Assembly (NCBI GenBank): GCA_963663165.1
Contig: OY760175.1
Location: 3,808,001-3,872,000, forward strand
Origin: an uncultured Desulfospira sp.
GTDB taxonomy: Bacteria > Desulfobacterota > Desulfobacteria > Desulfobacterales > Desulfobacteraceae
DNA length: 64,000 bases
Direction of reading: 5' to 3'
Of the stretch, positions 35,495 to 56,758 are shown in pieces (positions within the stretch are counted from its first letter, which is position 1; the number at the start of each line of letters is the position of its first letter). The notes under the pieces were generated by a model that saw only the letters and a list, made by a program, of their open reading frames with translations, searched no databases and was not told the origin of the DNA. Made by a program: the position numbers and the translations under genes.

Positions 35495-36328
35495 TTACTT
35501 GGCCAATACAATGGTTCCCATGTTTCTATCAACATCGGTTTTGATATCAATGGTCTGGGTTTTATAGCCGTCATATTCAACATTGATCTGAAATGTTTTG
35601 CCGGCTTCAAGGCCCTTAAATTCAAAATCACCCAGAAAATCCGTTGTGCTGGTCATTTCGGTGCCGTCGCCTTTAAGGGTTACCTTAACCCCCTGGCTGC
35701 AAACATCCTGCTGATCTTCAAGCAGGACTTCGCCCATGACCACCCGCTTGGGAACATTCCGGTAAACCACGTTGGAATGCAATCCAAATGCGGGATTCAG
35801 TTGCTCGGTGGGGGCCGATGCAATGTCCTTTGAAAGCGCGCTGTTGGGATCATCAAGGTCACCAAACAAGATGGCGCCGCTCGGACATGCCTCAGCGCAT
35901 CTGGGCTCTTTTGCGCCCTTTTCGAGTAAATGGACACAAAAGCTGCATTTCTGGGGAACATCCAGAACCGCATTCCAGGAAATGGCCCGGTAGGGGCAAT
36001 AGGTCATGATGTCTCTGTTGCCTTTTGCCTTTTCAGGGTCAATCACGACGATACCGTCATCCCGGCGGTAAACCTCTCCGTCTACGGCCTTGGCCACACA
36101 AGGAGCATCCTTACACTGAAGGCATGGCATGGCAATGTAATCCACCTTAACCTTGGGGCAGGTTCCCATTTCTTTTTCCGTGACCTTCATAAAGGGTTTG
36201 CTGTCATGGGGAATGGCTAACGAAAAGGGCGGATAATCGTTTCCGGAATATTCGTCCTTGCATGCCAGAAAGCAATTATAGCAGCCATTGCATTTGTTTA
36301 CATCTATTCTCATTCCATATTTGGCCAT
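35495..36328 (-). CDS. bthL: Transhydroxylase beta subunit (BthL-like, 3x[4Fe-4S])
   Basis: 'CNGCYNCFLACKDE', 'IDPEKAKG...CPY', C-terminal 'TDFLGDFEF' beta-sandwich. Confidence 0.8.
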   Translation of the reverse strand: MAKYGMRIDVNKCNGCYNCFLACKDEYSGNDYPPFSLAIPHDSKPFMKVTEKEMGTCPKVKVDYIAMPCLQCKDAPCVAKAVDGEVYRRDDGIVVIDPEKAKGNRDIMTYCPYRAISWNAVLDVPQKCSFCVHLLEKGAKEPRCAEACPSGAILFGDLDDPNSALSKDIASAPTEQLNPAFGLHSNVVYRNVPKRVVMGEVLLEDQQDVCSQGVKVTLKGDGTEMTSTTDFLGDFEFKGLEAGKTFQINVEYDGYKTQTIDIKTDVDRNMGTIVLAK

Positions 36329-36332
36329 TGGT

Positions 36333-38849
36333 TTAACCCTCCCATTTTCCAATTTCAATCAGACAGGTATTTGGTGTCATCCCCGGTACATTCTGGGACA
36401 TCATGGTGGATGATGTAAGGATATTGACACATCCGCCCCTGTCTACCGAGTCTGCTTTGCCGGGTTCCAACGGATCATAATTGGCGGCTGATCCATAGCT
36501 GTGAACCACCCCTTCGGGAACCCTTTCGGTAATCACTGCGGCACACAGAACCGTGCCCCGGTCATTGTAGAGTTTAACGATATCTTCCTGCCGAATTCCG
36601 CGTTTGGCGGCATCGGCCGGGTTGATCCTCACCGGCCAGTAGGCATAGCCGTCCTTTTTGATCCGGTGGGTGGGGATATCATTGAGCCAGTCCGTGTGTT
36701 TATCATACATGGTATGGAAACTGAACCGCGGATGGGGGCTGATGATCTGAAGCGGGTATTTTTCCCGGATGGGGCTCTTATGACCTTCCCAGCTTTCAAT
36801 GTAATGGGGCACAACAGGCCTTTCCTGGTCATCGGGAAGATTTGCTTTAAGGCTCTGAGAGGCAAATTCAAACTTTCCGCTGTAGGTACTCAGCTCATTG
36901 GCTTTGTCTGTTCCCCGTTTGGGATTCATGGAATCCGGGGTATCGCAGGCGCGGCCTTCATTGAACCAGCGCAATGCCGGGGTCGCCTTGTAATCATCGG
37001 ACGGGCTGATAATAATGTAGCCTTTTTTATCAAACTCTTCCCAGCTCATGATTTTGGGCAGGTCTGAAATTTCATAATAGGCCTTGGCCCAGTCCATGGT
37101 CGTTCTGCCACCGTCGGTATAAAGGTCCTTTTTACCCAGTTTTTCAGAAAGCGCCGTAAAAATTTCATAGTCAGGCCTTGACTCCCACAGGGGCTCAATG
37201 GCTTTTTGCTGGCGGACAATGATCCGGTAGTTGCACCCATTGTTGCCATGGTTGCTGTAGCCGCCGGCGGCGGCCCATTCTGCCCAGTCATCTCTTTCAA
37301 GGGCCGTACAGGCCGGAAAGATGATGTCGGCAAACTTGGTTTCACTGCAGTACCAGCAATCCTGGTTAACCACGAATTCCAGGTTCGGGCTCTGGTACAT
37401 CTTTACCCATTTGCTGGTATCGCTCATGGTCCCGATGAAGCTACCGCCGTATCTGTAGAACATCTTTATGTCGGAATACCCTTCCAGGGGATAGGTGAAT
37501 TTCTGGAACTGCATTTCAAGGTTCTGACCGCAGAAACCGGCACCGGTCCAGGCATCTTTCTTATTTATAATGGCATCGGGAAGGGTCAGTCTGTAAAGGC
37601 GCTGCTTGGTGGGGTTGGTGATCTTGGTCCGGGCGGCTCTGGTAATGGCCATCCGGGTGTCGAGATCCGCATATCCGGGAACATAAAAAGAGGTGTCGGC
37701 CGGACAGCCCATGGTGGTTCCCCAAATGGAGGTACCGGGTTTGCCAAGTCCCTGCATGGCTTGAAGAAGAACCATCAGTCTGGCCCACTCCGTTCCGAAA
37801 GCAGTTCGGCACGCCCCGCCTTCACCGCCCCTGGTACCGGCGGAAAGGATGGTCTTTTTGGCAGCCCACTCTTTGGCCAGGGACCGAATCTTTCTGGCGG
37901 GAATTCCGGACTCTTCTGAAGCCCACTCAGGGGTTTTGGCCTGGCCGTCTTCTTTTCCGGTGACGTATTCTTTGAACTCGTCAAACCCCACGGTCCTGTT
38001 TTCAACAAAGTCCTTGTCATAGGTATCGTCTTCAATCCAGGTGTAGGCGATGGCCAGGGCAACCGCGGCGTTTGAATCCGGGTTGGGGGGCAGCCAGGTG
38101 CCGTCCATATGAGCTGCGGTATAGTTGAAGTAAGGATCAAGGAAAACCATTTTAACGCCTTTTTCCTTGAGCCACTGCCGCCAGATAACAGAATCCTGGC
38201 CGCAGTAAATGGCATGGGTCGTATCCGGGTCATTGGACCAGAAAACGATCATCTCAGCATTCTGCATGGCATCTTCAAGAAGGTCATACTGCTCGGGCAT
38301 GCCCAGGCGCCAGAAAAATCCCCAGGCATGGGTGGCACCCCAGTGCCAGCCTTCCCAGGAGTCCGGGTTGTCCAGTACCGGCGTAAATTCCAGCATGTCC
38401 ATGAAGCGGGGGAAGGGTCCCATTTTATAGCCGACAATACCCCAGTTATGGTGGGATGATGTGATGCCGGTAATGGCAGATCCGCCGTATTCGCCCTGGA
38501 TTCTCTTGATCTCATTGGCCGTAATATCCAGCGCCTCTTCCCAGCTGATCCGTTCGTAGCCGGACTTGCCCCTGTTCTGGGGATTTCTCTCCCCATTGGG
38601 ATCAAAATCCACTCGTTTCATGGGGTATTTAATTCTGTCAGCGGAATACAGGCGGGTCCTTTCGGCATGGACAAAAGGCGCCAGGTTTGCCTTTAACGGC
38701 GGGCTGTATTTTTTTCCATCGGCCTCAATTGTCCAGGGTTTAAAATCCTCTTCCTGCATAATCAAAGGCTGAACCCTGGTAACTTTTCCGTCGGTTACCG
38801 TTACTGATATTGGCCCTTCATTTGTGCAGCTTGAATAGACTTTTTCCAT
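36333..38849 (-). CDS. athL: Pyrogallol-phloroglucinol transhydroxylase-like alpha subunit (AthL-like)
   Basis: 'SSHHNWG.VGY', 'NPDSWEGWHWG..H.WGF.WRLG.PEQYDLLED', 'SPHPRFS.HT', 'DRGGCVNILT'. Confidence 0.8.
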   Translation of the reverse strand: MEKVYSSCTNEGPISVTVTDGKVTRVQPLIMQEEDFKPWTIEADGKKYSPPLKANLAPFVHAERTRLYSADRIKYPMKRVDFDPNGERNPQNRGKSGYERISWEEALDITANEIKRIQGEYGGSAITGITSSHHNWGIVGYKMGPFPRFMDMLEFTPVLDNPDSWEGWHWGATHAWGFFWRLGMPEQYDLLEDAMQNAEMIVFWSNDPDTTHAIYCGQDSVIWRQWLKEKGVKMVFLDPYFNYTAAHMDGTWLPPNPDSNAAVALAIAYTWIEDDTYDKDFVENRTVGFDEFKEYVTGKEDGQAKTPEWASEESGIPARKIRSLAKEWAAKKTILSAGTRGGEGGACRTAFGTEWARLMVLLQAMQGLGKPGTSIWGTTMGCPADTSFYVPGYADLDTRMAITRAARTKITNPTKQRLYRLTLPDAIINKKDAWTGAGFCGQNLEMQFQKFTYPLEGYSDIKMFYRYGGSFIGTMSDTSKWVKMYQSPNLEFVVNQDCWYCSETKFADIIFPACTALERDDWAEWAAAGGYSNHGNNGCNYRIIVRQQKAIEPLWESRPDYEIFTALSEKLGKKDLYTDGGRTTMDWAKAYYEISDLPKIMSWEEFDKKGYIIISPSDDYKATPALRWFNEGRACDTPDSMNPKRGTDKANELSTYSGKFEFASQSLKANLPDDQERPVVPHYIESWEGHKSPIREKYPLQIISPHPRFSFHTMYDKHTDWLNDIPTHRIKKDGYAYWPVRINPADAAKRGIRQEDIVKLYNDRGTVLCAAVITERVPEGVVHSYGSAANYDPLEPGKADSVDRGGCVNILTSSTMMSQNVPGMTPNTCLIEIGKWEG

Positions 38850-39365: not shown

Positions 39366-40358
39366 ATGAAACTCAACAAAACCGACTTTCTGTTGATCAA
39401 GGCACTTCAAAAAAACGGCAGCGCCAGCTATTCGGATCTTGCCGGGGAACTGGGCATTACCGCCAAAACCGTTGCCAAAAAAACCGACCGGCTGCTGAAG
39501 AACAAAGTGATCTCCATCATTGCGCGACCCAACCCATACAGGCTCGGGCTTTTGGAAAGCGCCTTCATTGCCCTGAAAACCAACTTGTTAAAAAACGGGG
39601 AAATCTGCCGCTATCTGTCGGATAACTTTAATGTCAACCTGGTCCAGACCGTGTTCGGCAGCTATGACATCATAGCCGTTGTCTATTTTCAAGACCTGCA
39701 GCAGCTTCACAAGTTCATTGATGAAGAACTGTATACCCTGGACGGGGTCATCAAGGTGAAGACCTATTTCATTAAAGACACCTATAAACGGTACGATCGT
39801 TTTTTTGAAAAAGAATCCTTTTCCCAGGAGCCCGTTAAGATGAAAGAGACGGACTGGGAGCTTGTCAAAACCCTGTCCTGTGACGCCCGGGCCAACCCGG
39901 CCCATTTGGCGGAGGCTTTCGGGATTCACTTATCCACGGTCTACCGGCGCATTGAAACCCTGCAGAAAACCGGGGCCATCAGTATCAGTGCCGTGCCCAA
40001 CCCGTCGCGCCTGACCCCCCATTCATCCAATGCCTTTGTTATTTTAGAAACCCCTCCCCAGGAGGTGACGCTGCTCTTTAAAAAGCTGCGGGATTGCCCT
40101 GAAGTCCATTTTCTGATGACCACCAACACCCACTCCGGCCTGATCGCCTGCATCCACTCAAGGGACAATGCCTCGCTGTTTCAATTCATCCAGCAGTATA
40201 TCTCATCTCCCAACGGGCTTCTCAATGCGGATGTCTTTATCCGGGCCATGGTCCATAAAACTTATTACAACTGGTTTAAGGATGATGCTGTCCCGGTGGA
40301 CGGTGAAAAAACTGTGGAACTGGTAGATTCGGGCCTTGAATTGTCAAAAGGGCTTTAA
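39366..40358 (+). CDS. Tandem Lrp/AsnC regulator (paralog of 6586..7503)
   Basis: Shared 'PNPY.LGL', 'FID.ELYT..GV', 'KRYDRFF.KE'. Confidence 0.88.
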   Translation: MKLNKTDFLLIKALQKNGSASYSDLAGELGITAKTVAKKTDRLLKNKVISIIARPNPYRLGLLESAFIALKTNLLKNGEICRYLSDNFNVNLVQTVFGSYDIIAVVYFQDLQQLHKFIDEELYTLDGVIKVKTYFIKDTYKRYDRFFEKESFSQEPVKMKETDWELVKTLSCDARANPAHLAEAFGIHLSTVYRRIETLQKTGAISISAVPNPSRLTPHSSNAFVILETPPQEVTLLFKKLRDCPEVHFLMTTNTHSGLIACIHSRDNASLFQFIQQYISSPNGLLNADVFIRAMVHKTYYNWFKDDAVPVDGEKTVELVDSGLELSKGL

Positions 40359-40632: not shown

Positions 40633-43275
40633 ATGGCAGCAAAAAAAATTGACGAATCAAAAATGAAAGTCGACAAAACGGTTTACAAAGCCTTAGGGCT
40701 TAGTGGCGGGATCTTCGGTGCCTCGCCTTGTGCCGTGGACGTGAAAGACGGGAAAGTTATTCGTATCAGACCGATGCATTGGGCTGAAAAATACGATTAT
40801 AACAGCTTTAATCCCTGGAAGATCGAGCGGAACGGAAAGCTGTTTGAACCCCTTCACAAATCCGTACCTTCACCGTGGAGTCTGGCTTACAAAAAGCGGA
40901 CCTATTCGCCAAACCGGGTCAAGTACCCCTTAAAACGCGTTGACTGGGACCCTAAGGGGGATCGGAACACCCAAAACCGCGGCAAAAGTAAATTCGTACG
41001 GATCTCCTGGGACGAAGCCACTGATCTTATTGCAGATGAAATCAAACGGGTTCACAAAGAGTACGGCCCATTGAGCATCCTGGTCCAAGGCGACGGACAC
41101 GGTGAATGTAAGATGCTTCACGCGCCTCATGGTTGCTCCACCCTGCTGTTCGACAAGATGGGCGGTTTTACTCAGCAAGTGCGAAATCCTGACTCCTGGG
41201 AAGGCTGGTACTGGGGTGCCAAGCACGTCTGGGGAAAAGGCTTCATCGGCATGATGGCCCCGGCTGAAAACGTGGTAAAAGATATCTGCGAAAACAGCGA
41301 CATGGTTGTCGTCTGGGGCGGTGACCCGGAAACCACCCACTGGGGCTTCCGCGGCCAGCTGGCCAGCCGTCTGCTCTATTACTGGACGGAAATCGGTATC
41401 AAACAGGTCTATATCTGTCCGGACCTGAACTACTCCGCCTGTATCCACGCCGACAAGTGGATCCCGGTCCTGCCCAACACAGATGCGGCCCTTCAGCTGG
41501 CCATCATCTACCTGTGGGTGACCGAAGACACCTATGACAAAGAATATGTCAAAACCCACTGCATCGGCATGGACAAAATCGAAGACTATGTCCTGGGTAA
41601 AGTAGACGGCGTCGTCAAAACACCGAAGTGGGCATCAGAAAAATGCGGCGTTCCGCCATGGACCATCAAAGCCCTGGCCCGCGACTGGGCCAAGAAGATT
41701 GTCACCATCGGCCATTACTTTGCCGGCGGTATGGCCAGAGGGCCCTTCTCTCACGAACCGGCCCGCCTTGAATGTATCTTGCTGGGCATGCAGGGCCTGG
41801 GTAAACCCGGCGTTCATCAGGCCCAGATCGCTTACACGGGCATGCCTAAAAATGTCACTGCCGGCGGCGCCGACCATATGGGCACCTTTGGCAACCTTGA
41901 AGGCACACCGGCAGGCGAACGTATCCTGAAACCCCACCGGGGCACACCCACCGCCTGGGGCAAACAGATGATTCCCAAAACCCTTATCGAAAAGGCCATC
42001 AAAGAGGGCACCGTGGAATTCTGGGGCACTGGCGGCCATGAAGAAGATTCCACGAACCAATACGTAAAATATACCTATCCCATCCCCAAGGAAGAAGGCG
42101 GGACAGAAGTCCACTTTTTCTGGACAGACACCCCCTGCCGCCAGACCTGCTGGGGCCATGGCAATGATATCGCCGATACGGTCCGTGATCCCAAGATTGA
42201 AACCGTTGTCGCCCAGCATCCCTGGCTGGAAAACGACTGCCTGTTCGCCGATATCATTCTGCCCACCAACACCACCCTTGAGGTGGATGACATTTCTCCT
42301 TGTCTTCGTGACGGCGACAGCTTCCAGAGCGTTATCAACATGCGCAAGGCCGTTGAGCCTGTGGGCGAATCAAAGTCTGACTTTGAAGCCATTGTTGAAG
42401 TGGCCAAAAAGCTGGGTATGGAAGAAGCGGTTACCGAAGGTTTCACCATTGACGACCTGATCCGGGAAACTTATCTGGGCATGAAGTTTGACAAAGTCAT
42501 TCCTTTTGAAGAGTTCCTGGAAAAAGACTATGTGATTCTGCCGGTTGCCAAAAACTGGGAAGAGCATCCTGCAGGTCTTTACAAGTTCTACGAAGATCCG
42601 GAAGCCAACCCGCTTCCCACACCAACCGGAAAGCTTGAGTTCTACTCAAAAAGCCTTGAGGAAGCCTTCCCCTGTGACGAAGAACGTCCTCCCTTCCCCA
42701 AATGGCTGGAGAAAACCATCACCCATGATGAAAGAACCTCCAGTTACCGCGCCAAGAAATACCCGCTGCTCGTACTGTCCAACCACGGCCGGTGGAGAGT
42801 TCATGCCCAGGCCGATGATATCCCCTGGAGCAAGGAAGCCATGACCGGTAAGGTCAGAGGGTTTGACGGCTATCTGTATGAACCCTGCTGGATCAATACC
42901 CAGGACGCTGAAGCCCGCGGCATCAAGTTTGGTGATATTGTCCGGGTCTACAACGAACGCGGCAGCGTTCTGTGCGGTGCCCTGGCTTACGAACGGGTCA
43001 TGCCCGGAGCCGTCTCCATCGATCACGGTGCCCGGGTGGATTTCATTATCCCCGGAGAACTGGATCGCGGTGGCGCCATCAACCTGATCACCCCGGGCGG
43101 TTTAACATCAAAACATGCAGCCGGTCAGGCCACCACTGCCTTCCTGGTAGAGGTTGAAAGGGTCAGCATGCAGCAAATGGATGAATGGCGGCAGAAATAT
43201 CCGGAAGCCTTTGAAAGACAGTATGATTATGCGTCAGGCCTGCACTTTAACGGATGGATCGAGGAGGAAAAATAG
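40633..43275 (+). CDS. Transhydroxylase-family Mo-bisMGD alpha subunit, DGHGE subtype 1
   Basis: 'QGDGHGECK', 'NPDSWEGWYWG', 'NHGRWRVHAQ', 'DRGGAIN'; no N-terminal Fe-S or Tat motif. Confidence 0.88.
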   Translation: MAAKKIDESKMKVDKTVYKALGLSGGIFGASPCAVDVKDGKVIRIRPMHWAEKYDYNSFNPWKIERNGKLFEPLHKSVPSPWSLAYKKRTYSPNRVKYPLKRVDWDPKGDRNTQNRGKSKFVRISWDEATDLIADEIKRVHKEYGPLSILVQGDGHGECKMLHAPHGCSTLLFDKMGGFTQQVRNPDSWEGWYWGAKHVWGKGFIGMMAPAENVVKDICENSDMVVVWGGDPETTHWGFRGQLASRLLYYWTEIGIKQVYICPDLNYSACIHADKWIPVLPNTDAALQLAIIYLWVTEDTYDKEYVKTHCIGMDKIEDYVLGKVDGVVKTPKWASEKCGVPPWTIKALARDWAKKIVTIGHYFAGGMARGPFSHEPARLECILLGMQGLGKPGVHQAQIAYTGMPKNVTAGGADHMGTFGNLEGTPAGERILKPHRGTPTAWGKQMIPKTLIEKAIKEGTVEFWGTGGHEEDSTNQYVKYTYPIPKEEGGTEVHFFWTDTPCRQTCWGHGNDIADTVRDPKIETVVAQHPWLENDCLFADIILPTNTTLEVDDISPCLRDGDSFQSVINMRKAVEPVGESKSDFEAIVEVAKKLGMEEAVTEGFTIDDLIRETYLGMKFDKVIPFEEFLEKDYVILPVAKNWEEHPAGLYKFYEDPEANPLPTPTGKLEFYSKSLEEAFPCDEERPPFPKWLEKTITHDERTSSYRAKKYPLLVLSNHGRWRVHAQADDIPWSKEAMTGKVRGFDGYLYEPCWINTQDAEARGIKFGDIVRVYNERGSVLCGALAYERVMPGAVSIDHGARVDFIIPGELDRGGAINLITPGGLTSKHAAGQATTAFLVEVERVSMQQMDEWRQKYPEAFERQYDYASGLHFNGWIEEEK

Positions 43276-43277
43276 AT

Positions 43278-44099
43278 ATGGGAAAAAAAGTATTTGTAAT
43301 TGATTTGTCTATCTGTAACGGATGTTATACCTGCCAGTTTGCCTGCAAAGACGAACATTGCGGCAATGACTGGTCGCCAATTGCCAAATCCCAGCCCGAA
43401 ATCGGGCAGTTCTGGGTAAAGCTGACCGAAGAGGTTCGCGGTACGGTTCCCAAGGTCAAGGTAGCATACCGTCCCCATATGTGCATGCATTGCGACAATG
43501 CCGCCTGCATGGCTTCCTGCCCCACTGAAGGTGCCATCTACAAACGCGACGACGGGCTGGTCATCATTGATGCTGAAGCCTGCACCGGATGCCGGAACTG
43601 CATGGACGCATGCCCTTATGACGCTATCTATTTCAATGAAGACCTCAACCTGGCACAGAAATGCACCGGTTGCGCCCACCTGCTGGACAGCGGATGGGAA
43701 GAACCCAGATGCGTGGATGCATGCCCGACCCTGGCCCTCAAGTTTGTGGATGAAGACGAAGCAAAAGATATAATTGCCGCGTCTGAAGTCTGGAAACCCG
43801 AGTTAAAAGACACGGCCAAACCCCGGGTCTACTATCAGAATGTGCCGGGACAGTTTATTGCCGGCACCCTGTATGACCCTGCCGAGGAAGAAGTGATCAT
43901 CGGTGCTGTCGCCAACTTGACCGGCAGCGACGGAAAGGCGTTGACCGCAGAAACCGACGCCTATGGCGATTTCTGGTTTGAAGGGCTTGACAAAGGGGTT
44001 TTTGACCTTGAGCTGAAAAGTAATGGAAAGGTCAAAAGCTTTACCGGGCTCGACATAACTCAAAAAGACTTGAACCTCGGGGATATTCCCTTAGTATAA
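43278..44099 (+). CDS. BthL-like Fe-S beta subunit (4x[4Fe-4S])
   Basis: 'ACKDEH..NDW', 'CTGCRNC...CPY', 'TDAYGDFWF'. Confidence 0.88.
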   Translation: MGKKVFVIDLSICNGCYTCQFACKDEHCGNDWSPIAKSQPEIGQFWVKLTEEVRGTVPKVKVAYRPHMCMHCDNAACMASCPTEGAIYKRDDGLVIIDAEACTGCRNCMDACPYDAIYFNEDLNLAQKCTGCAHLLDSGWEEPRCVDACPTLALKFVDEDEAKDIIAASEVWKPELKDTAKPRVYYQNVPGQFIAGTLYDPAEEEVIIGAVANLTGSDGKALTAETDAYGDFWFEGLDKGVFDLELKSNGKVKSFTGLDITQKDLNLGDIPLV

Positions 44100-44107
44100 C
44101 GGCCGCG

Positions 44108-44152: not shown

Positions 44153-44389
44153 TGCTGGTAAAGCCATTGCGCAACACCGGATGGCTGACGGCTAAAAACC
44201 ATAGTTTATTGCAAATGAATTAATCCATAGCTGGACTTCTTAATTTTGGCTCTTGCTCAAGACCATAAATTCAGGTAAGAGCAAGATGACGCGCAGGAGA
44301 AACAGATCTAGTCATTTGCGGCAGACTATAGCAGCTTTTACATAAACTGTTCTGTGCTGGGAGCAACGGCCCCTGACATAGGAGAATTG

Positions 44390-47000: not shown

Positions 47001-47240
47001 GTTTGGCGATTTTGAATTTGAAAACCTGCCCAAGGGAAATGAATATACATTAAAAATAGAACTAGAACTGCCCGGGTATTTGCCCTGGGAGACCATTTTA
47101 ACAACAGATGAGCATTGGGTTGACGGCCGGATTCAATTGACCAGGCAGTAAGCAAACCTTAAGGTTAAAGATACCGGCCCGTCATCGTCCATGTTTTAAA
47201 GACGACTGGAAAAAAATTATTTGACGAAAATTAACATTGA

Positions 47241-47321
47241 TTGTCGTCTTCAGTACAGTCACAGAATTTTATTTCTGAGAAGATCTTAAATCATCACGGT
47301 TAAAGAAGTTCTCGGCAATAA
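47241..47321 (+). promoter_or_regulatory. Duplicated promoter with Crp/Fnr-type site TGTCG-N6-GTACA
   Basis: Three blocks match 53224-53317. Confidence 0.65.
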
Positions 47322-47462
47322 TACCGGGTATGCGCGCTGCCCATGAAACGGGTTGATTGGAACCCAAACGGTGAACGGAACCCCCAAAACAGGGGGAAAA
47401 ACAAATATGAATGAATCAGTTAGGCAAAAGCTGCAAAAATCGCATTAAATGAGATTGACCGC
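47322..47462 (+). pseudogene. Remnant of an alpha subunit related to 53346..55931
   Basis: 'PMKRVDWNPNGERNPQNRGKNKYE*IS*....IALNEIDR' with two stops. Confidence 0.75.
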
Positions 47463-47493
47463 TTTACGCCTGGGTTGTGGGAGGTGACAAATT

Positions 47494-48315
47494 ATGAAAG
47501 TATTTGCTATTGACTTATCCATGTGCAACGGATGCTATTGCTGTCAGATTGCCTGCAAAGACGAACATGTGGGCAATGACTGGGCGCCTTATGCCAAACC
47601 CCAGCCCGATACAGGACAATTTTGGATCGGCTTGGAAGAACAGGTTCGCGGCCAGGTGCCCAAGGTCATGGTGACCTACATTCCCCACCTTTGTCAGCAT
47701 TGCGACGATGCGCCGTGTATCAAGCAGTGCGAAGTGGGTGCCATCCTGAAACGGGACGACGGCATTGTGTTGATTGAACCTGATTTATGCACCGGCTGCC
47801 AGCTGTGCGTCAGCACTTGTCCTTACAATGCCATTTTCTTTAATGAAGATTTGAACATTGCCCAGAAATGCACGGGATGCAGCCATCTGCGGGACAATGA
47901 ACCCGATGAATGGACCGTGCCGCGCTGCGTGGACCAGTGCCCCACCGACGCCCTTCGTTTCGGTGAAGAGGAAGAGTTTGCCGATTTTATCAAAGACGCC
48001 CAACAGTTGAACCCGGATGCCGGCACCAAGGGCCGGGTCTATTACAAAAATCTTCCTAAAAAGTTCATTGGCGGCACCATCTACGATCCCAGCGAAAAAG
48101 AGGTGATCATCGGCGCCGCATGCACGCTAAAGGACAACGATTCCGGCCAAAGCTTTTCCACTGAAACGGACAACTTTGGTGACTTTTGGTTTCGAGGGCT
48201 GGACGATGACCGCAGTTTTACCCTGACCTTTGAAAAGAACGGTAAAACCCATACTATCGACGGCATATCCACGGATAAGGATCTTTCTTTGGGGGATATC
48301 CCTATAACCTTTTAA
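47494..48315 (+). CDS. BthL-like Fe-S beta subunit (4x[4Fe-4S])
   Basis: Same motifs as 43278; 'CTGCQLCVSTCPY'. Confidence 0.88.
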   Translation: MKVFAIDLSMCNGCYCCQIACKDEHVGNDWAPYAKPQPDTGQFWIGLEEQVRGQVPKVMVTYIPHLCQHCDDAPCIKQCEVGAILKRDDGIVLIEPDLCTGCQLCVSTCPYNAIFFNEDLNIAQKCTGCSHLRDNEPDEWTVPRCVDQCPTDALRFGEEEEFADFIKDAQQLNPDAGTKGRVYYKNLPKKFIGGTIYDPSEKEVIIGAACTLKDNDSGQSFSTETDNFGDFWFRGLDDDRSFTLTFEKNGKTHTIDGISTDKDLSLGDIPITF

Positions 48316-48371: not shown

Positions 48372-50972
48372 ATGGCAACAATAAAAACCAAAGATAAAAC
48401 AGTTCTCAGGAGTCTCGGATTAGGTGGTTTTTTCGGGGGCGGTGCCGAAGGGATGGTGGATGTTAAAAACGGCAAGATCGTCCGCGTTCGCCCCATGAGA
48501 TACGGCTGGAAATACAAAGAAGACGATGTCCGGCAGTGGACCATTACCAAAGACGGCAAATCCATTGGGCCCGGCTGGAAAAGCCTTCCCGGCCCCTTTT
48601 CCCTGGCTTACAAAAAACGGGTTTATTCCCCCAACCGGATCCTGTTCCCCCTAAAACGGGTGGACTGGGACCCCAACGGCGAACGCAACACCCAGAACCG
48701 GGGAAAAAGCAAATATAAACGGATTTCCTGGGATGAGGCCTCAGATCTGATTGCATCTGAAATCAAACGAATTCATAAAAAATACGGGGTCCACGCCATC
48801 CTGATGCAGGGTGACGGCCATGGCGAGTGCAAGTCTATTAACACCCCCCACGGCCATCCGGGAAACCTTCTGGACCACATGGGCGGGTTTACCCTTCAGG
48901 TCCGTAACCCGGACTCCTGGGAGGGCTGGTACTGGGGGGCCAAACATGTCTGGGGCCACGGGGTCCAGGGCAACATGTGGCCGGCCGCCAATACGGTAAA
49001 AGACTGTACCGAACACTCTGAAATGGTCCTGTTCTGGGGATGTGATCCCGAGACCACGCCCTGGGGCTTTGCCGGACAGTTTGCCAGCCGGCTGTGCTAT
49101 TTCTGGGAACAACTGGGAATCAAACAGGTCTATATCTGCCCGGACTTAAACTATGGGGCTGCGGTTCATGCGGACAAGTGGATCCCCATCCTTCCCAATA
49201 CGGACGCGGCCCTGCAACTGGCCATTGCCCATGTCTGGATCACTGAAAATCTTTATGACAAGGCTTATGTGGACACCCATGTGGTGGGCATGCAGGAATT
49301 TGCCGAGTATGTTCTGGGCGAAGAGGACGGCATTGAAAAAACACCGGAATGGGCATCCAGAAAATGCGGCATCCCGGAATGGACCATCAAAGCCTTAGCC
49401 CGGGAATTTGCCCGGAAGATTACCTCTATTGCCCATTATTTCGGCGGCGGACTCATCAGGGGACCCTTTTCCCATGAAAACGCCCGTCTTGAGGTGGTTC
49501 TGCTGAGCATGCAGGGCCTTGGCGGCCCCGGGGTTCACCAGCTTCAGTTCACCTATTTTGGCATGCCCAGAAAAGAGAACCTGGCCGGCGGTATCTGGAA
49601 TCCGGATATTGAAGAACGGCTCTCCATCCCGGTCATGTCATCCATCAGCTCCTGGCAGAAACAGGCGCTTCCCAAATGCCTGGTCCATAAGGCCATCCAG
49701 GCTGAAGGGCCTATTACCTTCTGCGGGACCGGGGCCATTGAGGGGTTGACCCGGGACCAGTTCAACGAATACACCTTTCCCATCCCCAAAGAAGAAGAAG
49801 GCAGTGAGATCCACATGATGTGGACCGACACCCCCTGCCGGATCACCTGCTGGAACGGCGGCAATGAGACCGAGGTGGCGTTACGTAACCCTAAGGTTGA
49901 AACCATTGTGGCCCAGCACCCCTGGCTTGAAAATGACTGCCTCTACGCGGACATTATCCTGCCGTCCAACACCTCCTTTGAAGTGGATGACATTGTCACC
50001 AACGTGCGCCAGGGAACGCCCCAGCCCAATATCATGATCCAGGACAAGGCCATTGAGCCCATCGGGGAATCCAAGAGTGACTTTGAGGTGGTGGTTGAAG
50101 TGGCCAAGAAAGTCGGCCTGGAAAAAGAGATGACCCAGGAACTGACCATTGCCGATCTGCAAAAGCGGATCTGGCATCACATGGGCGGCGAAAAGCTGCT
50201 TCCCTGGGAGCAGTTGGAAGAAAAGAAGTACTGGATGTACAATACCGCCAAAGACTGGGAAAATGATCCTCCGGGGCTGCGGCAGTTTTATGAAGACCCG
50301 GAACGGCATCGCCTGGGCACCCCCAGCGGCAAACTCGAATTTTATTCCGAGTCCCTGGCTGCCCGGTTTCCCGATGACCAGGAAAGACCGCCCATCCCCA
50401 AATGGATCGAAAAAAGCACCATGCACGACGAGCGCCTTTCCAGCAACCGCTCCAAAGTCTACCCCCTGCTGCTCATGTCCAACCACGGCCGCTGGCGGGT
50501 TCACTCCCAGTGCGACGACATTACCTGGACCAGGGAAGTGGGCACCTGCAAGGTTACCGGACCGGACGGGTACAAATACGAACCCTTATGGATGCACACC
50601 TCTGAAGCGGCAAAACGCGGCATAAAGAACGGGGACATCGTCAAAATCTTTAATGAACGGGGAATTGTTCTGGCCGGCGCCTTTGTCACGGAACGCTTAC
50701 GTCCCGGTGTTGTCTATATTGACCACGGTGCCCGTGCCGACGCCATCAAGGTCGGGGAAATTGACCGGGGCGGTGCCATCAACACCATATCCCCTGACGG
50801 CATCATCTCAAAGAACTGTGTGGGCCAGGCCACCAGCGGTTATCTGGTTCAGATCGAGAAGCTCAGCGGGCATGAGATGGAACAATGGCGCAATGATTAC
50901 CCGGATGCCTTTGAAAGGAAATATGATCCAGCCGCAGGTCTCAGGTTTGACGCATGGGTTGTAAAAGACTAA
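48372..50972 (+). CDS. Transhydroxylase-family alpha subunit, DGHGE subtype 2
   Basis: 'QGDGHGECK', 'NPDSWEGWYWG'. Confidence 0.88.
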   Translation: MATIKTKDKTVLRSLGLGGFFGGGAEGMVDVKNGKIVRVRPMRYGWKYKEDDVRQWTITKDGKSIGPGWKSLPGPFSLAYKKRVYSPNRILFPLKRVDWDPNGERNTQNRGKSKYKRISWDEASDLIASEIKRIHKKYGVHAILMQGDGHGECKSINTPHGHPGNLLDHMGGFTLQVRNPDSWEGWYWGAKHVWGHGVQGNMWPAANTVKDCTEHSEMVLFWGCDPETTPWGFAGQFASRLCYFWEQLGIKQVYICPDLNYGAAVHADKWIPILPNTDAALQLAIAHVWITENLYDKAYVDTHVVGMQEFAEYVLGEEDGIEKTPEWASRKCGIPEWTIKALAREFARKITSIAHYFGGGLIRGPFSHENARLEVVLLSMQGLGGPGVHQLQFTYFGMPRKENLAGGIWNPDIEERLSIPVMSSISSWQKQALPKCLVHKAIQAEGPITFCGTGAIEGLTRDQFNEYTFPIPKEEEGSEIHMMWTDTPCRITCWNGGNETEVALRNPKVETIVAQHPWLENDCLYADIILPSNTSFEVDDIVTNVRQGTPQPNIMIQDKAIEPIGESKSDFEVVVEVAKKVGLEKEMTQELTIADLQKRIWHHMGGEKLLPWEQLEEKKYWMYNTAKDWENDPPGLRQFYEDPERHRLGTPSGKLEFYSESLAARFPDDQERPPIPKWIEKSTMHDERLSSNRSKVYPLLLMSNHGRWRVHSQCDDITWTREVGTCKVTGPDGYKYEPLWMHTSEAAKRGIKNGDIVKIFNERGIVLAGAFVTERLRPGVVYIDHGARADAIKVGEIDRGGAINTISPDGIISKNCVGQATSGYLVQIEKLSGHEMEQWRNDYPDAFERKYDPAAGLRFDAWVVKD

Positions 50973-51026
50973 TATAGAGGCAGTCAGTGAAACAACTTAC
51001 GCCTAAGAGACAAATAAGGAGATAAA

Positions 51027-51848
51027 ATGGCCATTATAACAATTACAAAAGCCTCATACAGCAGCGGTGAACAAATTGCCGAACGTCTCTCCAAACGGTT
51101 AAAATACCCCTGGATGGGAAGACGGGAACTGTTTGCCCGTGCGTCTGAAGATTTTCATTTTCCTGAAAAAGACCTGGTCGAGGCCGTGGAAGAACCGGCC
51201 AAGATCTGGCAGCAGGACCGTGAAAAGCAGGCGGCCAACTACAATTTAATCCGGGCAACCTTTCTCAAACGGTGCAGCGAAGAAAAAGGGAATCTCGTTT
51301 ACCACGGCCATGCCGGCCCGGAATTTGTCAGACGGATTCCCCATGCCTTGCGGATACTGGTGGTCGGAGAAATGGAATACCGGATTGAACAGGCCATGAA
51401 AATAGACGGCCTGGACCGGGACAAGGCGATTGAAACCATTCACAAAAACGACAAACGGGTCACCAAATGGTCCCAGCAGATGCATACCGTCAACTGGCGG
51501 GATTTCTCCTGGTACGATATGGTCTTTCACCTTGGCCGCCTGAGCGCCGAAAGCGCGGAAGAAGCGGTGGTTGGCATCATCGAATCCGGCGGGTTTAACA
51601 TTACGGAAGAGTCTAAAAAAGCCTTTTATGATGAATATCTGGGCAGCGTTGTCTGGACCAAGCTGACCAATAATGATGAGACCAGCAGCGCCGTTATTGA
51701 GACCATTGCCGAACATGGCCGGGTTACCATTTCAGGGGTGGCGCGCTCTAAAGAGCAAAAAGAGGCCATCACGGCTTTGACCGCTTCCATCGAAGGGGTT
51801 GAAAGTGTGCAGAACAACGTCGGCATCGGCGCCATCTGGCGCTCCTAA
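51027..51848 (+). CDS. Cytidylate-kinase-like protein with C-terminal BON domain
   Basis: 'IITIT..SYSSGEQIAERL'; 'GRVTISG...GVESVQNN'. Confidence 0.75.
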   Translation: MAIITITKASYSSGEQIAERLSKRLKYPWMGRRELFARASEDFHFPEKDLVEAVEEPAKIWQQDREKQAANYNLIRATFLKRCSEEKGNLVYHGHAGPEFVRRIPHALRILVVGEMEYRIEQAMKIDGLDRDKAIETIHKNDKRVTKWSQQMHTVNWRDFSWYDMVFHLGRLSAESAEEAVVGIIESGGFNITEESKKAFYDEYLGSVVWTKLTNNDETSSAVIETIAEHGRVTISGVARSKEQKEAITALTASIEGVESVQNNVGIGAIWRS

Positions 51849-51938
51849 GCAAAAAGCGTTAAGGCCTTTCCTAAAAAAGAGGCCGGACATGAATTGTGCC
51901 GGTATCTTAACGGTGCTGGATGGATCTGTTTTTTAAAC

Positions 51939-51988
51939 CATGAAGAACAAGGAGAGCATGAAGCAACAAATACTTCATGCTCTTCATG
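51939..51988. repeat. 9-mer-based palindromic REP-like element
   Basis: catgaagaa...agagcatgaag / cttcatgctcttcatg. Confidence 0.5.
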
Positions 51989-52028
51989 TTCCGGGTAAAT
52001 ATTTTGACTCATGAATTTGGAGATAAGT

Positions 52029-52547
52029 ATGATAAAACCCATTCAATCGATTCTTTTTGCCACAAATTTGAACAAAACCTGTATCCCGGCTCTTGAAATG
52101 GCCGCCGCCATGGCCACCCGGCATCAGGCCACCCTGGTGCTGATGCACGTGGTGGAACAGATGCCCGAATACATTGAAACCCGCCTCAAAGGGCTGTTCG
52201 GCGAACAGGAGTATGAGGATATGGTTCAAAAAAAATCCAATACCGCCCGTGCGGCCCTGATCGGCAAAATCTCTGCTTCCGGCCTTGTCCGGGAGGCCCT
52301 TGAACAATTTTGCGCCAATGCCGGCATAGATGATGATGCCTGTGATTACCAGGCCAGGGAAATTGTGGTGACCGGGGGCAATCTGGTGGAAGAAATCATT
52401 GCCACCTCAAAAAAATACGATTGCGGTTTCATTGTCATGGGGGCAAGAGAAGGGTTCCTTACCGACAATTCCATCGGCCATACCATCAAATCGGTCATGC
52501 GCCGGTCTAAAATTCCGGTAATGATGGTCCCCCCGCCCCAGGAATAA
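52029..52547 (+). CDS. Universal stress protein
   Basis: 'ILFATN', 'IVMGA...IGHT...V.R.SKIPVM'. Confidence 0.88.
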   Translation: MIKPIQSILFATNLNKTCIPALEMAAAMATRHQATLVLMHVVEQMPEYIETRLKGLFGEQEYEDMVQKKSNTARAALIGKISASGLVREALEQFCANAGIDDDACDYQAREIVVTGGNLVEEIIATSKKYDCGFIVMGAREGFLTDNSIGHTIKSVMRRSKIPVMMVPPPQE

Positions 52548-52565
52548 TGGGCTTGTTACAGGTAA

Positions 52566-53213
52566 ATGGGGATGGATAAAATTAAATTAGATACCGTTTT
52601 ATCCCGGGTTGGGAGGTTAAAGGAATATGCCAGAAATCAGATCATTTATCGGCAGATGGAAGAACCTTCCGGACTCTTTTTTATCAAAAAGGGCAAGGTC
52701 AGAAATTATATTGTCACTGAAGACGGAAAAGAGAAGACCTGTACCATATCCATTGAGGGGGAATTTTTCGGGCTGGCCTATTTTTTCGATGACGGATTAA
52801 ACGATACATCGGCCCATGCCATGGAAAAGTCCCAGATTTATACCATCGGCCATGACGGGATGGAGCATATCTATCGCCATGAGCATGATGTGGTGGTACA
52901 GATCCTCAAATCAATGGCCCAGAAAATGCGGTTCCTCTCTTTTCAGATGACCAGCCTGGCCTTCCTGTCTGCTGACCGGAAAATTGCACAAATGCTGGTT
53001 CACCTTGCCGAGCGGTTCCATCCCCCAGAGCCGGACCCGTTCCCGATTACCATCAACTGTACCCATGAAGATATCGCCCTGCTGTCCAGCACCTCCCGGA
53101 CAACGGTTACCCAGGTGCTCAACGACCTGGAAAAAAGGCATCTGGTTTCAAAAGGATACCGGTCTGTCATTATCCATGATCTGGAAACCATGAAACGCAT
53201 TATTTTTGAATAA
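52566..53213 (+). CDS. Crp/Fnr family regulator
   Basis: cNMP-binding fold (GEFFG) plus HTH 'THEDIALLSSTSRTTVTQVL'. Confidence 0.9.
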   Translation: MGMDKIKLDTVLSRVGRLKEYARNQIIYRQMEEPSGLFFIKKGKVRNYIVTEDGKEKTCTISIEGEFFGLAYFFDDGLNDTSAHAMEKSQIYTIGHDGMEHIYRHEHDVVVQILKSMAQKMRFLSFQMTSLAFLSADRKIAQMLVHLAERFHPPEPDPFPITINCTHEDIALLSSTSRTTVTQVLNDLEKRHLVSKGYRSVIIHDLETMKRIIFE

Positions 53214-53223
53214 TCGGCTGTAA

Positions 53224-53317: not shown

Positions 53318-53345
53318 TCTCTTTTAATGATAGGAGTACCATCTT

Positions 53346-55931
53346 ATGCCCAGTCAAGACAAAGAGCACGAGATTGAGAAATCAATATTCAGAGGGCTTG
53401 GCTTTTGTTCAATCACCGCAGATGCCAACAGTGTCCAGGTGGACTGCAACAAAGGCAAAATCATCCGAATACGCCCCCTTCGCTATGATTTAAAATACCC
53501 GGACATCACCCCATGGGAAATCAAAGCAAAGGGAAAGAGTTTTTCCCCGTTGAAAAAATCACTGATTCCCCCCTACAGCCTGGGATACAAGAACCGGGTA
53601 TATTCCCCCAACCGGGTTCTGTTCCCCATGAAACGGGTGGACTGGGACCCCAATGGCAACCGCAATCCCCAGAACAGGGGAAAAAGCAAATACGAGCGGA
53701 TCAGCTGGGAAGACGCCATTGAGATCATGTACAACGAAATCAACCGGGTAAAAGAAACCCACGGTATGGAGGCGATCCTGTCCCAGTCCGACGGCCACGG
53801 GGAAACCAAATGCGTCCACTCGGCCCATGGCTGCCACAGACGGTTGTTAAGCCTTCTGGGCGGATACACCCTCCAGACCCGGAATACCGACTCCTGGGAA
53901 GGCTGGGTATGGGGCGCCAAACATGTCTGGGGCTGTGAGAACTTAGGCGAAATGGTACCGGTCAACAACGTTATCGAGGATGTGGCCAACAATTGTGACG
54001 CGGTCTTCTACTGGGGCTGCGACCCTGAGACCACCCCCTGGGGCTTTGACGGACAGCTGGCCAGCCGCATCTGCTACTGGTTTACCGAAGTGGGTGTTAA
54101 ATCCCTTTATGTGTGTCCGGACCTGAACTACGGGGCAGCGGTTCATTCAGACAAGTGGGTTCCCATCTACCCCAACACCGACGCCGCCCTTTACCTTGCC
54201 ATCGCTTACATGTGGATGATTGAAGGCACTTACAACAAAGAATATATCAAGACCCACGCCGTGGGATTTGACAAGTTTGAAGAATATGTCCTGGGCAAAG
54301 AAGACGGGATTGCCAAAACCCCCAAATGGGCCGCTGAAATTACCGGCATTCCCTCTTACACCATCAAGGCTTTGGCCCGGTACTGGGGAAAGAAAACCGT
54401 GTCCATTGCCATTGGCAACGGCGGCCCGGGCATCCGGGGACCCTATGCCACGGAACCTGCCCGGCTCCAGGTGCTGCTGCTGGCCATGCAGGGTCTTGGC
54501 GGCCCCGGGGTTCACCAGTTCAAAATGATCGAATGGGGCATTTACAATAAAAAGCACAATATCCCGTTGCCCCCGCCGTCCAAATATATCCCCGTACTTT
54601 TGGACGCCAACCGGGGATGGAAGTATCAGGATACCCCCCGGCAGTTTATTCCCAAAAACCGGATCCACGACGCCATCCTGAACCCGCCCATCACCTGGTA
54701 CGGCACAGGCCTGTCTCGGGACAGTGTAGAACAGCAGTTCATCCCCTACAAATATCCCCTTGACGATGCCCCGGAAGTTCACATGATCTGGACTGACTCC
54801 CCCTCATGGATGAGCTGCTGGAACGATACCAACATGCTGGTCAAAGCATTTAGAAGTGAAAAAATTGAATTTATTGTGGCCCAGCATCCATGGATTGAAA
54901 ACGACTGCCAGCTGGCCGACCTGATCCTGCCCTCGGCCACGGTCATGGAAGTTAAAGACATTGGTGTGGAAACTATGAGCGGCCAGTTCTCCTGCGTCTT
55001 TTATGAAGACCAGGCCATCCGTCTGCGGGGAGAATCCAAAAGCGATTATGAAATCGTCTGCGCCATTGCCGAGCGGTTCGGCATCCTGGATGAATACACC
55101 CAGGGCAAAAGCGTGGATGAATGGATTGAACGCGGCCATGAGACCTCAGGGGCCGGCGATGAAATCACTTTTGAAGAGCTCAAGGAAAAAGGCTACTACG
55201 TGGTTCCGCCCGACACCAGCGAACGGGGAACCAAGGCCGGAAAGTACGAATTCTATGAAGACCCGGAAAAATATCCCCTGTCAACGCCGTCGGGAAAAAT
55301 CGAGTTTTACTCAGAACGGCTGGCCACCCATTTCCCCGATGACAACGAACGTCCGCCGGTGCCCCGGTATATTGCCTCAGGCGAATCCCATCAGGAAGAC
55401 CGCTTAGGGCCCCGGGGAAAAGCGTATCCGCTGCTGGTGGTCTCCAACCACCCCAAATGGCGGGTCCACTCCCAGCATGACGACATGACCTGGCTTAGAG
55501 AAATCCATACCTGCAAGGTTAAAGGTCCGGACGGCTACCAGTACGAACCGGCCTGGCTCCACCCGGTGGAAGCTGAAAAAAGAGGCATCAAAGACGGCGA
55601 TGTTGTGATCATCCGCAATGAGCGCGGTAGTGTCATGGCCGGTGCCTGGGTTACCGAACGGCTGCGGCCGGATGTGGTTTACATTGACCATGGCGCCCGC
55701 TGGGATCCCATTGTCCCGGGCGAACTTGACCGGGGCGGTGCCATCAACACCATCACCCCCCATAACGTGACCTCAAAACATGCCGGCGGCATGGTGAGCA
55801 GCGGCTTTCTGGTTGAGGTGGAAAAAGCCGACTTGGATGAGCTGCGCAAGCAATATCCGGAAAGCTTTAACCAACCCTACCATGACGGGGCAGGACTGCA
55901 CTCACAGCGCATTATCAATGGAGGAGAGTAA
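53346..55931 (+). CDS. Transhydroxylase-family alpha subunit, DGHGE subtype 3
   Basis: 'QSDGHGETK', 'NTDSWEGWVWG'. Confidence 0.88.
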   Translation: MPSQDKEHEIEKSIFRGLGFCSITADANSVQVDCNKGKIIRIRPLRYDLKYPDITPWEIKAKGKSFSPLKKSLIPPYSLGYKNRVYSPNRVLFPMKRVDWDPNGNRNPQNRGKSKYERISWEDAIEIMYNEINRVKETHGMEAILSQSDGHGETKCVHSAHGCHRRLLSLLGGYTLQTRNTDSWEGWVWGAKHVWGCENLGEMVPVNNVIEDVANNCDAVFYWGCDPETTPWGFDGQLASRICYWFTEVGVKSLYVCPDLNYGAAVHSDKWVPIYPNTDAALYLAIAYMWMIEGTYNKEYIKTHAVGFDKFEEYVLGKEDGIAKTPKWAAEITGIPSYTIKALARYWGKKTVSIAIGNGGPGIRGPYATEPARLQVLLLAMQGLGGPGVHQFKMIEWGIYNKKHNIPLPPPSKYIPVLLDANRGWKYQDTPRQFIPKNRIHDAILNPPITWYGTGLSRDSVEQQFIPYKYPLDDAPEVHMIWTDSPSWMSCWNDTNMLVKAFRSEKIEFIVAQHPWIENDCQLADLILPSATVMEVKDIGVETMSGQFSCVFYEDQAIRLRGESKSDYEIVCAIAERFGILDEYTQGKSVDEWIERGHETSGAGDEITFEELKEKGYYVVPPDTSERGTKAGKYEFYEDPEKYPLSTPSGKIEFYSERLATHFPDDNERPPVPRYIASGESHQEDRLGPRGKAYPLLVVSNHPKWRVHSQHDDMTWLREIHTCKVKGPDGYQYEPAWLHPVEAEKRGIKDGDVVIIRNERGSVMAGAWVTERLRPDVVYIDHGARWDPIVPGELDRGGAINTITPHNVTSKHAGGMVSSGFLVEVEKADLDELRKQYPESFNQPYHDGAGLHSQRIINGGE

Positions 55932-55933
55932 CT

Positions 55934-56758
55934 ATGGCGAAAGTATTAATCTTTGATGTAAATAAGTGCAACGGCTGTCATAACTGCCAGATCGCCTGCA
56001 AGGATGAACACTGCGGCAATGACTGGCAGCCCATAGCCGCCCCGCAACCGCTGACCGGCCAGTTCTGGTGTAAAATCCATGATAAGGTAAGGGGCCAGGT
56101 GCCCAAGGTCAAAGTGGCCTATACCCTGAACATCTGCCGGCATTGCGACGATGCGCCGTGTATCGGTGCCTGCGCTGATGAAGCCATCTACAAACGGTAT
56201 GACGGCATTGTCATCATCGATCCCACCAAATGCACGGGTTGCCACTCCTGCTTAAAAGCCTGTCCTTACGACGATGTGATCTACTACAACGACACCCTGA
56301 ACATTGCCCAGAAATGCACCCTGTGTGCCCATCTGCTGGACCAGGGTGAAAAAGAGCCCCGTTGTGTAGAGGTCTGTCCCACGGACGCCCTTGTTTTTGC
56401 CGAGGAGAGCGAGGCCAAAGATCTGTTAAAAGATGCCGAAGAACTTCAGGGTTCTTTTAATACCAAACCCCGGGTCCACTACCGCAACCTTCCCAAACGG
56501 TTTATTGCCGGCCTGATCTATGATCCGGACAAGGATGAGATCGTTGAAGGGGCATCGGTAACCGTGACGGCCTCGGACAACAGTGAAGTGGTCACCCTTT
56601 CCACCGATGAATTCGGCGATTTCATGAAAGACAGCCTTGAGAAAGGTGTTTACACCCTGACCATTGCCAAAGAGGGATACAACAGCCGGACCATTGAAGC
56701 CGATGTGGTTGACAAAGACATAAACGTAGGGGATATCCCCCTTTATGCGAACAAGTAA
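55934..56758 (+). CDS. BthL-like Fe-S beta subunit (4x[4Fe-4S])
   Basis: 'CTGCHSCLKACPY', 'TDEFGDF'. Confidence 0.88.
   Translation: MAKVLIFDVNKCNGCHNCQIACKDEHCGNDWQPIAAPQPLTGQFWCKIHDKVRGQVPKVKVAYTLNICRHCDDAPCIGACADEAIYKRYDGIVIIDPTKCTGCHSCLKACPYDDVIYYNDTLNIAQKCTLCAHLLDQGEKEPRCVEVCPTDALVFAEESEAKDLLKDAEELQGSFNTKPRVHYRNLPKRFIAGLIYDPDKDEIVEGASVTVTASDNSEVVTLSTDEFGDFMKDSLEKGVYTLTIAKEGYNSRTIEADVVDKDINVGDIPLYANK

Follow-up and report, generated by a model that had tools for sequence, protein, structure and literature searches.

An array of four intact alpha/beta gene pairs for molybdenum-bis(pyranopterin guanine dinucleotide) (Mo-bisPGD) enzymes spans positions 35495-56758 of the window, a stretch of 64,000 nucleotides from an uncultured Desulfospira sp. 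(assembly GCA_963663165.1, contig OY760175.1, positions 3,808,001 to 3,872,000). All four alphas belong to the AthL/RehL (RhL/PgtL) family of the dimethyl sulfoxide (DMSO) reductase superfamily; alpha 1 is of SHH type, and alphas 2-4 share a DGHGE motif. With little better than even confidence, we read the sequences of the three DGHGE enzymes as those of electron-coupled dehydroxylases (or, with lower probability, hydroxylases) that act on polyhydroxylated aromatics, probably each on a substrate of its own.

PF21423 (AhtL-like domain 1), PF00384, and PF01568 scored above cut-off in all four alphas, and PF04879, the N-terminal Fe4S4 family, matched none of them. For the three alphas searched, the closest relative in the Protein Data Bank (PDB) was AthL (4v4c_A), with E values of 5e-261 (alpha 1), 7e-128 (alpha 2), and 2e-133 (alpha 4); alpha 2 is about 33% identical to it. 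Because the four alphas are full-length homologues, chance resemblance is excluded. Alpha 1 is 36-37% identical to alphas 2-4, which are 49-59% identical to one another. The motifs named in a preliminary description of this DNA were largely recovered. DSWEGW is present in all four alphas and aligns to Ser175 of AthL in the alignments of alphas 1, 2, and 4. Tat and N-terminal Fe-S motifs are lacking as described, with no RR in the first 40 residues and no N-terminal Cys motif in any of the four, and the enzymes are predicted to be cytoplasmic. The AthL-type SSHHxWG motif occurs in alpha 1 only, as SSHHNWG, and DGHGE(C/T)K with NHxxWRVH in alphas 2-4. The C-terminal YPExF extension ascribed to these three was seen in alphas 2 and 4; alpha 3 reads YPDAF instead.

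Residues were numbered on alignments to AthL, and the roles of its pocket residues are those reportedly assigned by Messerschmidt in 2004. Alphas 2-4 keep His144 (the H of DGHGE) and Asp174, Ser175, and Trp176 (the DSW of DSWEGW), so neither the Mo ligand nor the acid-base pair is lost. Of the AthL pocket set (Ser143/His144, Tyr152/Arg153, Trp354, Tyr404, Phe468, Cys557/Tyr560) they keep His144 only. Other residues stand in place of Tyr152/Arg153, the loops of Trp354 and of Cys557/Tyr560 are shorter (the latter by about 9 residues), and Phe468 is variable. The Tyr404 region corresponds to the central loop that had been noted to differ among the three DGHGE alphas; the pocket loops do differ from subtype to subtype, and within a subtype they are conserved from phylum to phylum. 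Compared with AthL/AthS (PgtL/S of Pelobacter acidigallici, PDB 4v4c), the DGHGE pairs share PF21423, Ser175 within DSWEGW, His144, Asp174, Trp176, the missing Tat leader and N-terminal cluster, a beta with an immunoglobulin (Ig)-like tail, and the fold. They differ in having SNHxxWR for SPHPRFS, a C-terminal extension of about 30 residues, and a beta with four Cys groups where AthS has three. The AlphaFold model of alpha 2 (predicted local distance difference test, pLDDT, 72; predicted template modelling score, pTM, 0.74) had AthL as its best match (template modelling score, TM, 0.80), and an Atlas search returned nothing beyond unnamed AthL-like clusters.

The main functional clue, as far as it can be read from sequence, is a fourth Fe-S motif in the betas, on which the preliminary description is silent. 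Betas 2-4 have a full CxxCxxCxxxCP where AthS and beta 1 have KAKG; the match of beta to AthS, Ig-like tail included, had an E value of 2e-52. In counts that leave out unpaired betas, may hold a few mis-assigned pairs, and draw on sequences that are kin, the fourth motif was full in 80 of the 91 distinct betas paired with DGH-type alphas and had three Cys in a further 7, and one Cys was left of it in 40 of 41 SHH-paired betas. We take this motif, by analogy with DmsB and NarH, to be the distal cluster that meets an external carrier.

On these grounds we propose the following scheme. Tripartite ATP-independent periplasmic (TRAP) systems would import hydroxylated aromatics, and alpha 1, the SHH enzyme, would shift hydroxyls. 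In the DGHGE enzymes the phenol would be bound at Mo as in AthL; because the co-substrate loop is lost, they would perform one half-reaction of the AthL cycle only, on different substrates, and electrons would pass via the restored distal cluster to a soluble partner. A short-chain dehydrogenase/reductase (SDR) and a cyclase would then reduce, and subsequently open, the meta-hydroxylated ring. We prefer reduction to oxidation, since the carriers, which are fermenters, sulfate reducers, and Dehalococcoidia, would have low-potential donors and few high-potential acceptors. A Bacillota DGH subclade (L175-L183, with NHPRHRTH) has betas partly or fully stripped of the fourth Cys motif, and is a natural test of this wire hypothesis. 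A wider and rather doubtful reading, offered tentatively, would make DGHGE a second, independently evolved bacterial aromatic dehydroxylase family, with a transhydroxylase scaffold, no co-substrate gate, a full four-cluster wire, and obligate AthL-type partners, that funnels lignin and tannin polyphenols into phloroglucinol-type ring fission. The hosts of such a funnel might be the sulfate reducers of sediments, Dehalococcoidia, Thermoleophilia, and, in an Oscillospiraceae-type family, about one in four of the genomes sampled.

The DGHGE proteins form a large subfamily with a clade of its own, as the preliminary description had supposed in calling them a distinct subtype. In the main tree (58 sequences, fast maximum likelihood), the C-terminal-extension clade containing all DGHGE proteins had a support of 100 and the SHH clade 99.2 in the Shimodaira-Hasegawa-like approximate likelihood-ratio test (SH-aLRT). 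A FastTree of 140 sequences likewise parted the two groups. A phylogeny with AthL, RehL, and DbhL had been proposed as a check; both trees place the DGHGE clade apart and were built without these three. Alpha 2 fell among proteins of Bacillota and Actinomycetota, alpha 3 beside one of Desulfocicer niacini, and alpha 4 in a third subclade. Since each alpha groups with foreign sequences, local tandem duplication was rejected and the array was assembled from old subtypes. The earlier notion of an expanded subfamily thus holds for DGHGE at large and not for the array, which is no local expansion but a collection of anciently diverged subtypes. Different pocket loops in different old subclades fit different substrates.

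One of the four alphas had been described as having an AthL-type motif. Alpha 1 does carry the SSHHxWG motif, is closer to AthL than alphas 2-4 are, and retains S143, H144, Y152, D174, S175, W176, Y404, F468, and Y560. Its candidacy as an AthL orthologue was nevertheless rejected, given the substitutions R153K, W354E, and C557A and a position outside the clade that keeps the AthL motifs. The full AthL motif set is present in proteins L192-L198 of other genomes; the present genome has nine AthL-family alphas in total (five DGHGE, four SHH), and none of them falls in the clade of those proteins. Deep members of the DGHGE-containing clade, found in Dehalococcoidales and archaea, carry Tat-like leaders; in a set of five (P0384, P0389, P0391, P0398, and P0404, the last from Dehalococcoidales) some are without DSWEGW, and these sequences suggest exported enzymes with changed metal ligation. 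A link to the Eggerthella steroid 21-dehydroxylase or the gut catechol dehydroxylases was not found; the named longer sisters were Dehalococcoidales and archaea (3 taxon labels, 10 clusters).

The best 120 matches of alpha 2 were all at least 63% identical to it. Among the matches listed, 77 loci were kept, all metagenome-derived, from Desulfobacterota, Dehalococcoidia, Thermoleophilia and other Actinomycetota, and Clostridia. The spread was patchy, with family members in 5 of 61 relatives and, when two candidates were scored per genome, DGH-level matches in 6 of 401 genomes of the phylum. Cultured carriers of DGHGECK are Desulfopila aestuarii DSM 18488 (WP_073611884.1) and Desulfocicer niacini (WP_459918520.1). 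At four loci (L064, L065, L094, L112) the DGHGE alpha comes after genes for an Fe-S protein, an anchor of NrfD type, and a Mo enzyme of another clade with 734-740 amino acids (aa).

DGHGE seems to be dependent on an SHH-type gene. An SHH-like alpha, called at an identity of at least 48% to alpha 1 and motif-checked in a subset, was present in all 35 DGH carriers tested (30/30 and 5/5), and 6 genomes had the SHH type only. The two types stand at most 10 kb apart in 14 of the 77 loci (hand count, one spurious open reading frame, ORF, dropped). Both types also track the cyclase-family hydrolase encoded at 5474-6361 of the window. With the same scoring of two candidates per genome, a cyclase at least 86% identical was found in 5 of the 6 DGH carriers vs. 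0 of the 395 other genomes of the phylum. In the Bacillota family of genome G463 (Oscillospiraceae-type), an AthL-family gene was present in 72/75 cyclase-positive vs. 21/226 cyclase-negative genomes, and by a hand count in which many matches span half the protein, at least 83 of its 301 genomes match alpha 4 at 50% identity or more.

The same association is seen in gene order. In genome G247, orthologues of alpha 1 (73%) and alpha 4 (72%) enclose the genes for a beta-keto acid cleavage enzyme (BKACE), a cyclase (86% identical to that of the window), an SDR (61%), and a 3-hydroxyacyl-CoA dehydrogenase (3HCDH). The clostridial genomes G465 and G463 have genes for thiolase, SDR, cyclase, 3HCDH, and BKACE (and, in G465, a CoA transferase) with an SHH pair and related DMHGE pairs on their flanks. 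The same gene families form the phloroglucinol cluster (PGR/DPGC/TfD/TAL pathway) of Clostridium scatologenes, for which the available text of PMC10470551 describes no Mo enzymes. In the window, the cyclase and SDR are homologues with a putative role in such a pathway, and the module at 5474-10292 is a candidate, judged by its gene content, for phloroglucinol-type ring reduction and opening. The 90% cluster of the cyclase contains a Sporobacter termitidis protein; growth of this organism is restricted to methoxylated aromatics, whose rings it cleaves, according to the part of PMC4585845 available. D. aestuarii DPGCs of 260 and 268 aa appear in the accessible part of the published lists; these are the lengths of the cyclase pair beside a DGHGE gene in genome G459 (a match in length only).

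Several observations weigh against electron-coupled dehydroxylation linked to ring fission. No conserved redox-partner or anchor gene was found next to the alphas among the 1009 ORFs of the 77 loci, where the only frequent neighbours were beta (54 loci) and TRAP parts (14 loci). Four of the 91 DGH-paired betas have one Cys only in the fourth motif. Proteobacterial SHH enzymes, possibly Reh/Dbh-like, have betas without that motif, therefore net redox may not need it and a fourth cluster is no proof of net redox. The active-site loops of the alpha 2 model have a pLDDT below 50; the modelling of the pockets proposed earlier thus confirms nothing beyond the AthL fold, the pocket loops being of low confidence. 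The genomes behind the co-occurrence counts are kin, four of the six carriers in the phylum being of one family. The Sporobacter cyclase is absent from the published DPGC lists among the entries listed in the accessible part, and no solved phloroglucinol reductase close to the SDR was found among the structures listed. TfD (best 36%) and TAL orthologues are not evident in the genome, its single BKACE gene is far from the array, and genomes G013 and G021 have no BKACE.

The first alternative is the oxidative direction of the same chemistry, which we weigh separately and consider unlikely: the DGHGE enzymes could catalyse net hydroxylation, in the manner of the resorcinol and 3,5-dihydroxybenzoate hydroxylases. 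A probable task would then be making the tetrahydroxybenzene co-substrate that primes the AthL-type partner, a role that the SHH partner in 35/35 carriers fits. RehLS of Aromatoleum anaerobium oxidises resorcinol to hydroxyhydroquinone (PMC10084136), and in the available text of PMC10100899 RehLS and DbhLS of Thauera aromatica AR-1 belong to the Ser-ligated RhL/PgtL family, RehLS being grouped with PgtL. Net redox on a polyphenol ring, as these enzymes perform it, is the chemistry proposed here for DGHGE, but they serve the oxidative pathway of nitrate reducers and not the phloroglucinol-type reductive one. RehL and DbhL are, we assume, about 50% identical to AthL, which would place both in the SHH clade. 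An NrfD-type anchor, found in 6 of the 77 loci, also fits hydroxylation. Against it, most carriers would lack high-potential acceptors, five paralogues are needless for one priming enzyme, and the conserved neighbours did not include btd or bqd, which belong to the oxidative route, although no search by name was made.

True transhydroxylation of other substrate pairs (side-chain-bearing trihydroxybenzenes, hydroxyhydroquinone), with the fourth cluster as ancestral baggage, appears improbable. The retained catalytic core speaks for it, as do the loss of the fourth motif in one Bacillota subclade (L177, L178, L183) and the Tat-like leaders of sister members, which suggest that the full wire is ancestral. 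It is harder to reconcile with the shortened Cys557/Tyr560 loop, the absence of Trp354 and Tyr404, and a fourth motif that is full in 80/91 partners across phyla.

Database labels name the DGHGE proteins trimethylamine N-oxide (TMAO) or S/N-oxide reductases. That they are S- or N-oxide reductases, or act on non-phenolic (e.g. N-heterocyclic) compounds, the link to polyphenol genes reflecting shared lifestyle, strikes us as quite improbable. Tat-like leaders in sister lineages and an isatin hydrolase among the cyclase-family proteins are consistent with it, and so is the presence of Desulfocicer niacini, which grows on nicotinate, among the carriers. But every curated model of DMSO, TMAO, and biotin-sulfoxide reductases scored far below its cut-off (best 349-366 bits vs. 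the bisC_fam cut-off of 1018), DSWEGW and His144 are AthL features missing from the TorA-type sequences in the tree, and BKACE, 3HCDH, and cyclase genes adjoin DGHGE genes in three phyla. That the three copies are redundant, or orthologues of a characterised enzyme, is very hard to credit, even with RehL and DbhL outside the sequence comparison and a literature search that was mostly open-access, for the copies are 49-59% identical, their subtype-specific loops are conserved across phyla, and all three are intact in the related genome G001.

The reductive removal of ring hydroxyls that we favour for the DGHGE enzymes is known from the bis-PGD catechol dehydroxylases Dadh, Cadh, and Hcdh of Eggerthellaceae, which differ in clustering with acetylene hydratase and away from transhydroxylase in the available part of PMC7028382. 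Membership in that clade fails for the DGHGE alphas: the alpha 2 model returned AthL at rank 1 (E 1.5e-61) and acetylene hydratase at rank 25 (17% identity). It is another gene of the window, at 16294-18447, that resembles the catechol-dehydroxylase clade.

To our knowledge, only three enzymes of the AthL/RehL family have been characterised. The DGHGE branch had been thought uncharacterised, and no characterised member was found in the open literature searched or in the PDB searches. No study of the branch was found in that literature either; subscription papers, including those on RehL and DbhL, lie beyond its scope and may bear on this. As far as the available portions of these sources go, multi-copy homologues in Dehalococcoidia were reported without subtyping (PMC4959651), ecology studies count homologues as pgthAB (10.1101/2024.10.22.619724; 10.64898/2026.07.17.739263), and in a cockroach-gut study such a gene was upregulated on bran in Oscillospiraceae (PMC11565919). 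The DGHGE clade, part of the RhL/PgtL family, is not confined to this window, which adds three adjacent subtypes, an apparent reliance on an AthL-type partner, a link to ring fission, and named strains. Should DGHGE indeed perform net redox, the names pgthAB and TMAO reductase give a wrong picture of how carbon and electrons flow when polyphenols are turned over without oxygen in sediments, peat, and guts; the branch would then also be a new source of aromatic C-O chemistry that is regioselective and needs no oxygen. Since the array brings three subtypes together with a partner enzyme, and some carriers are in culture, the question is testable now.

Within the array, the first pair lies on the minus strand. 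Alpha 1 (36333-38849, 838 aa) is of the GIVGYKMGPF subclade of the SHH type, and its end is overlapped by beta 1 (35495-36358), which is of the three-cluster type with KAKG replacing the third Cys motif as in AthS. A TRAP transporter (DctP/DctQ/DctM; 32227-35250, minus strand) follows 3' of this pair. Between the alpha 1 and alpha 2 genes, which point away from each other, lies a tandem Lrp/AsnC regulator (39366-40358, plus strand). It has paralogues beside the cyclase (6586-7503) and beside two further Mo-enzyme genes (G000 82247 and 4394510). These four tandem-Lrp regulators are 49-67% identical, each adjoins a Mo enzyme or cyclase, and they are possibly a dedicated phenol-sensing regulator family.

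The remainder of the array is on the plus strand. Alpha 2 (40633-43275, 880 aa, DGHGECK/HAPHG subtype) is 83% identical to clostridial proteins, and beta 2 (43254-44099) has four complete Fe-S Cys groups and an Ig-like C-terminal domain. They are followed by a 353-aa protein without a Pfam match (44354-45415), 57% identical to an HD-domain protein adjoining the genome's other DGHGE cluster, and by an orphan TRAP solute-binding protein (45558-46571), 65% identical to its counterpart at 34228-35250. Gene scars at 46810-47465, absent from the preliminary description, are remnants of two alphas and one beta: an N-terminal piece of an SHH-type alpha, fused to the tail of its beta and sharing 82-93% identity with the pair at 4.39 Mb of the genome, comes first, and a second alpha fragment after it. 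Beta 3 (47494-48315, four-cluster type) lies upstream of alpha 3 (48372-50972, 866 aa, DGHGECK/INTPHG subtype), which shares 76-80% identity with two paralogues encoded at other places in the genome. Genes for a cytidylate-kinase-like/BON protein, a universal stress protein, and a CRP/FNR regulator (51027-53213) intervene before alpha 4 (53346-55931, 861 aa, DGHGETK subtype) and its four-cluster beta 4 (55934-56758). Alpha 4 is 49-51% identical to alphas 2 and 3 and 72-75% identical to orthologues of other lineages. A 100-aa protein without a Pfam match (56777-57079) and an HbpS/GlcG-like haem protein complete this end (to 57802); in G247, a protein with a similar N-terminus to the 100-aa protein, judged by eye, stands after the beta of the alpha 4 orthologue.

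Two further modules lie to the left in the window. In the ring-fission candidate (5474-10292), the cyclase-family hydrolase on the minus strand is followed by the tandem Lrp, a cupin, the SDR, and a major facilitator superfamily (MFS) protein on the plus strand. The second (13255-20199, plus strand) comprises a TRAP transporter, an acetylene-hydratase-like Mo enzyme (16294-18447), an Fe-S protein, and an FAD/NAD(P) oxidoreductase. The Mo enzyme matches 2e7z at E 9e-73, resembles the clade holding the catechol dehydroxylases, and is a candidate relative of these. Two triplets resembling the set at 16294-20199 are found at genome positions 3.57 and 4.27 Mb.

The whole island is kept in relative G001 at 92-95% DNA identity. 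About 12 kb of the window (20.2-32.2 kb) are missing there, and the modules at 5.5-20 kb therefore adjoin the array in that genome. This segment (20200-32190) holds a type I restriction-modification system with a split HsdS, a Schlafen/AlbA ATPase, and an MscS channel. A plasmid search gave 15 matches, every one below 35% identity. The right border of the island (58043-63884) holds a transposase of IS701 type, a RepB-like primase, and a pair made up of an integrase core and an ATPase, and the genome has elements like these at other sites too. A second island of the genome (G000:C1:1077000-1156000, L001-L005) carries two DGHGE pairs, one SHH pair, and an SHH alpha of about 1000 aa with an N-terminal extension. 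It further holds a cyclase pair, an SDR, an enoyl-CoA hydratase, a thiolase-like/OB-fold pair, and TRAP systems, and similar sets are present in G013 and G459.

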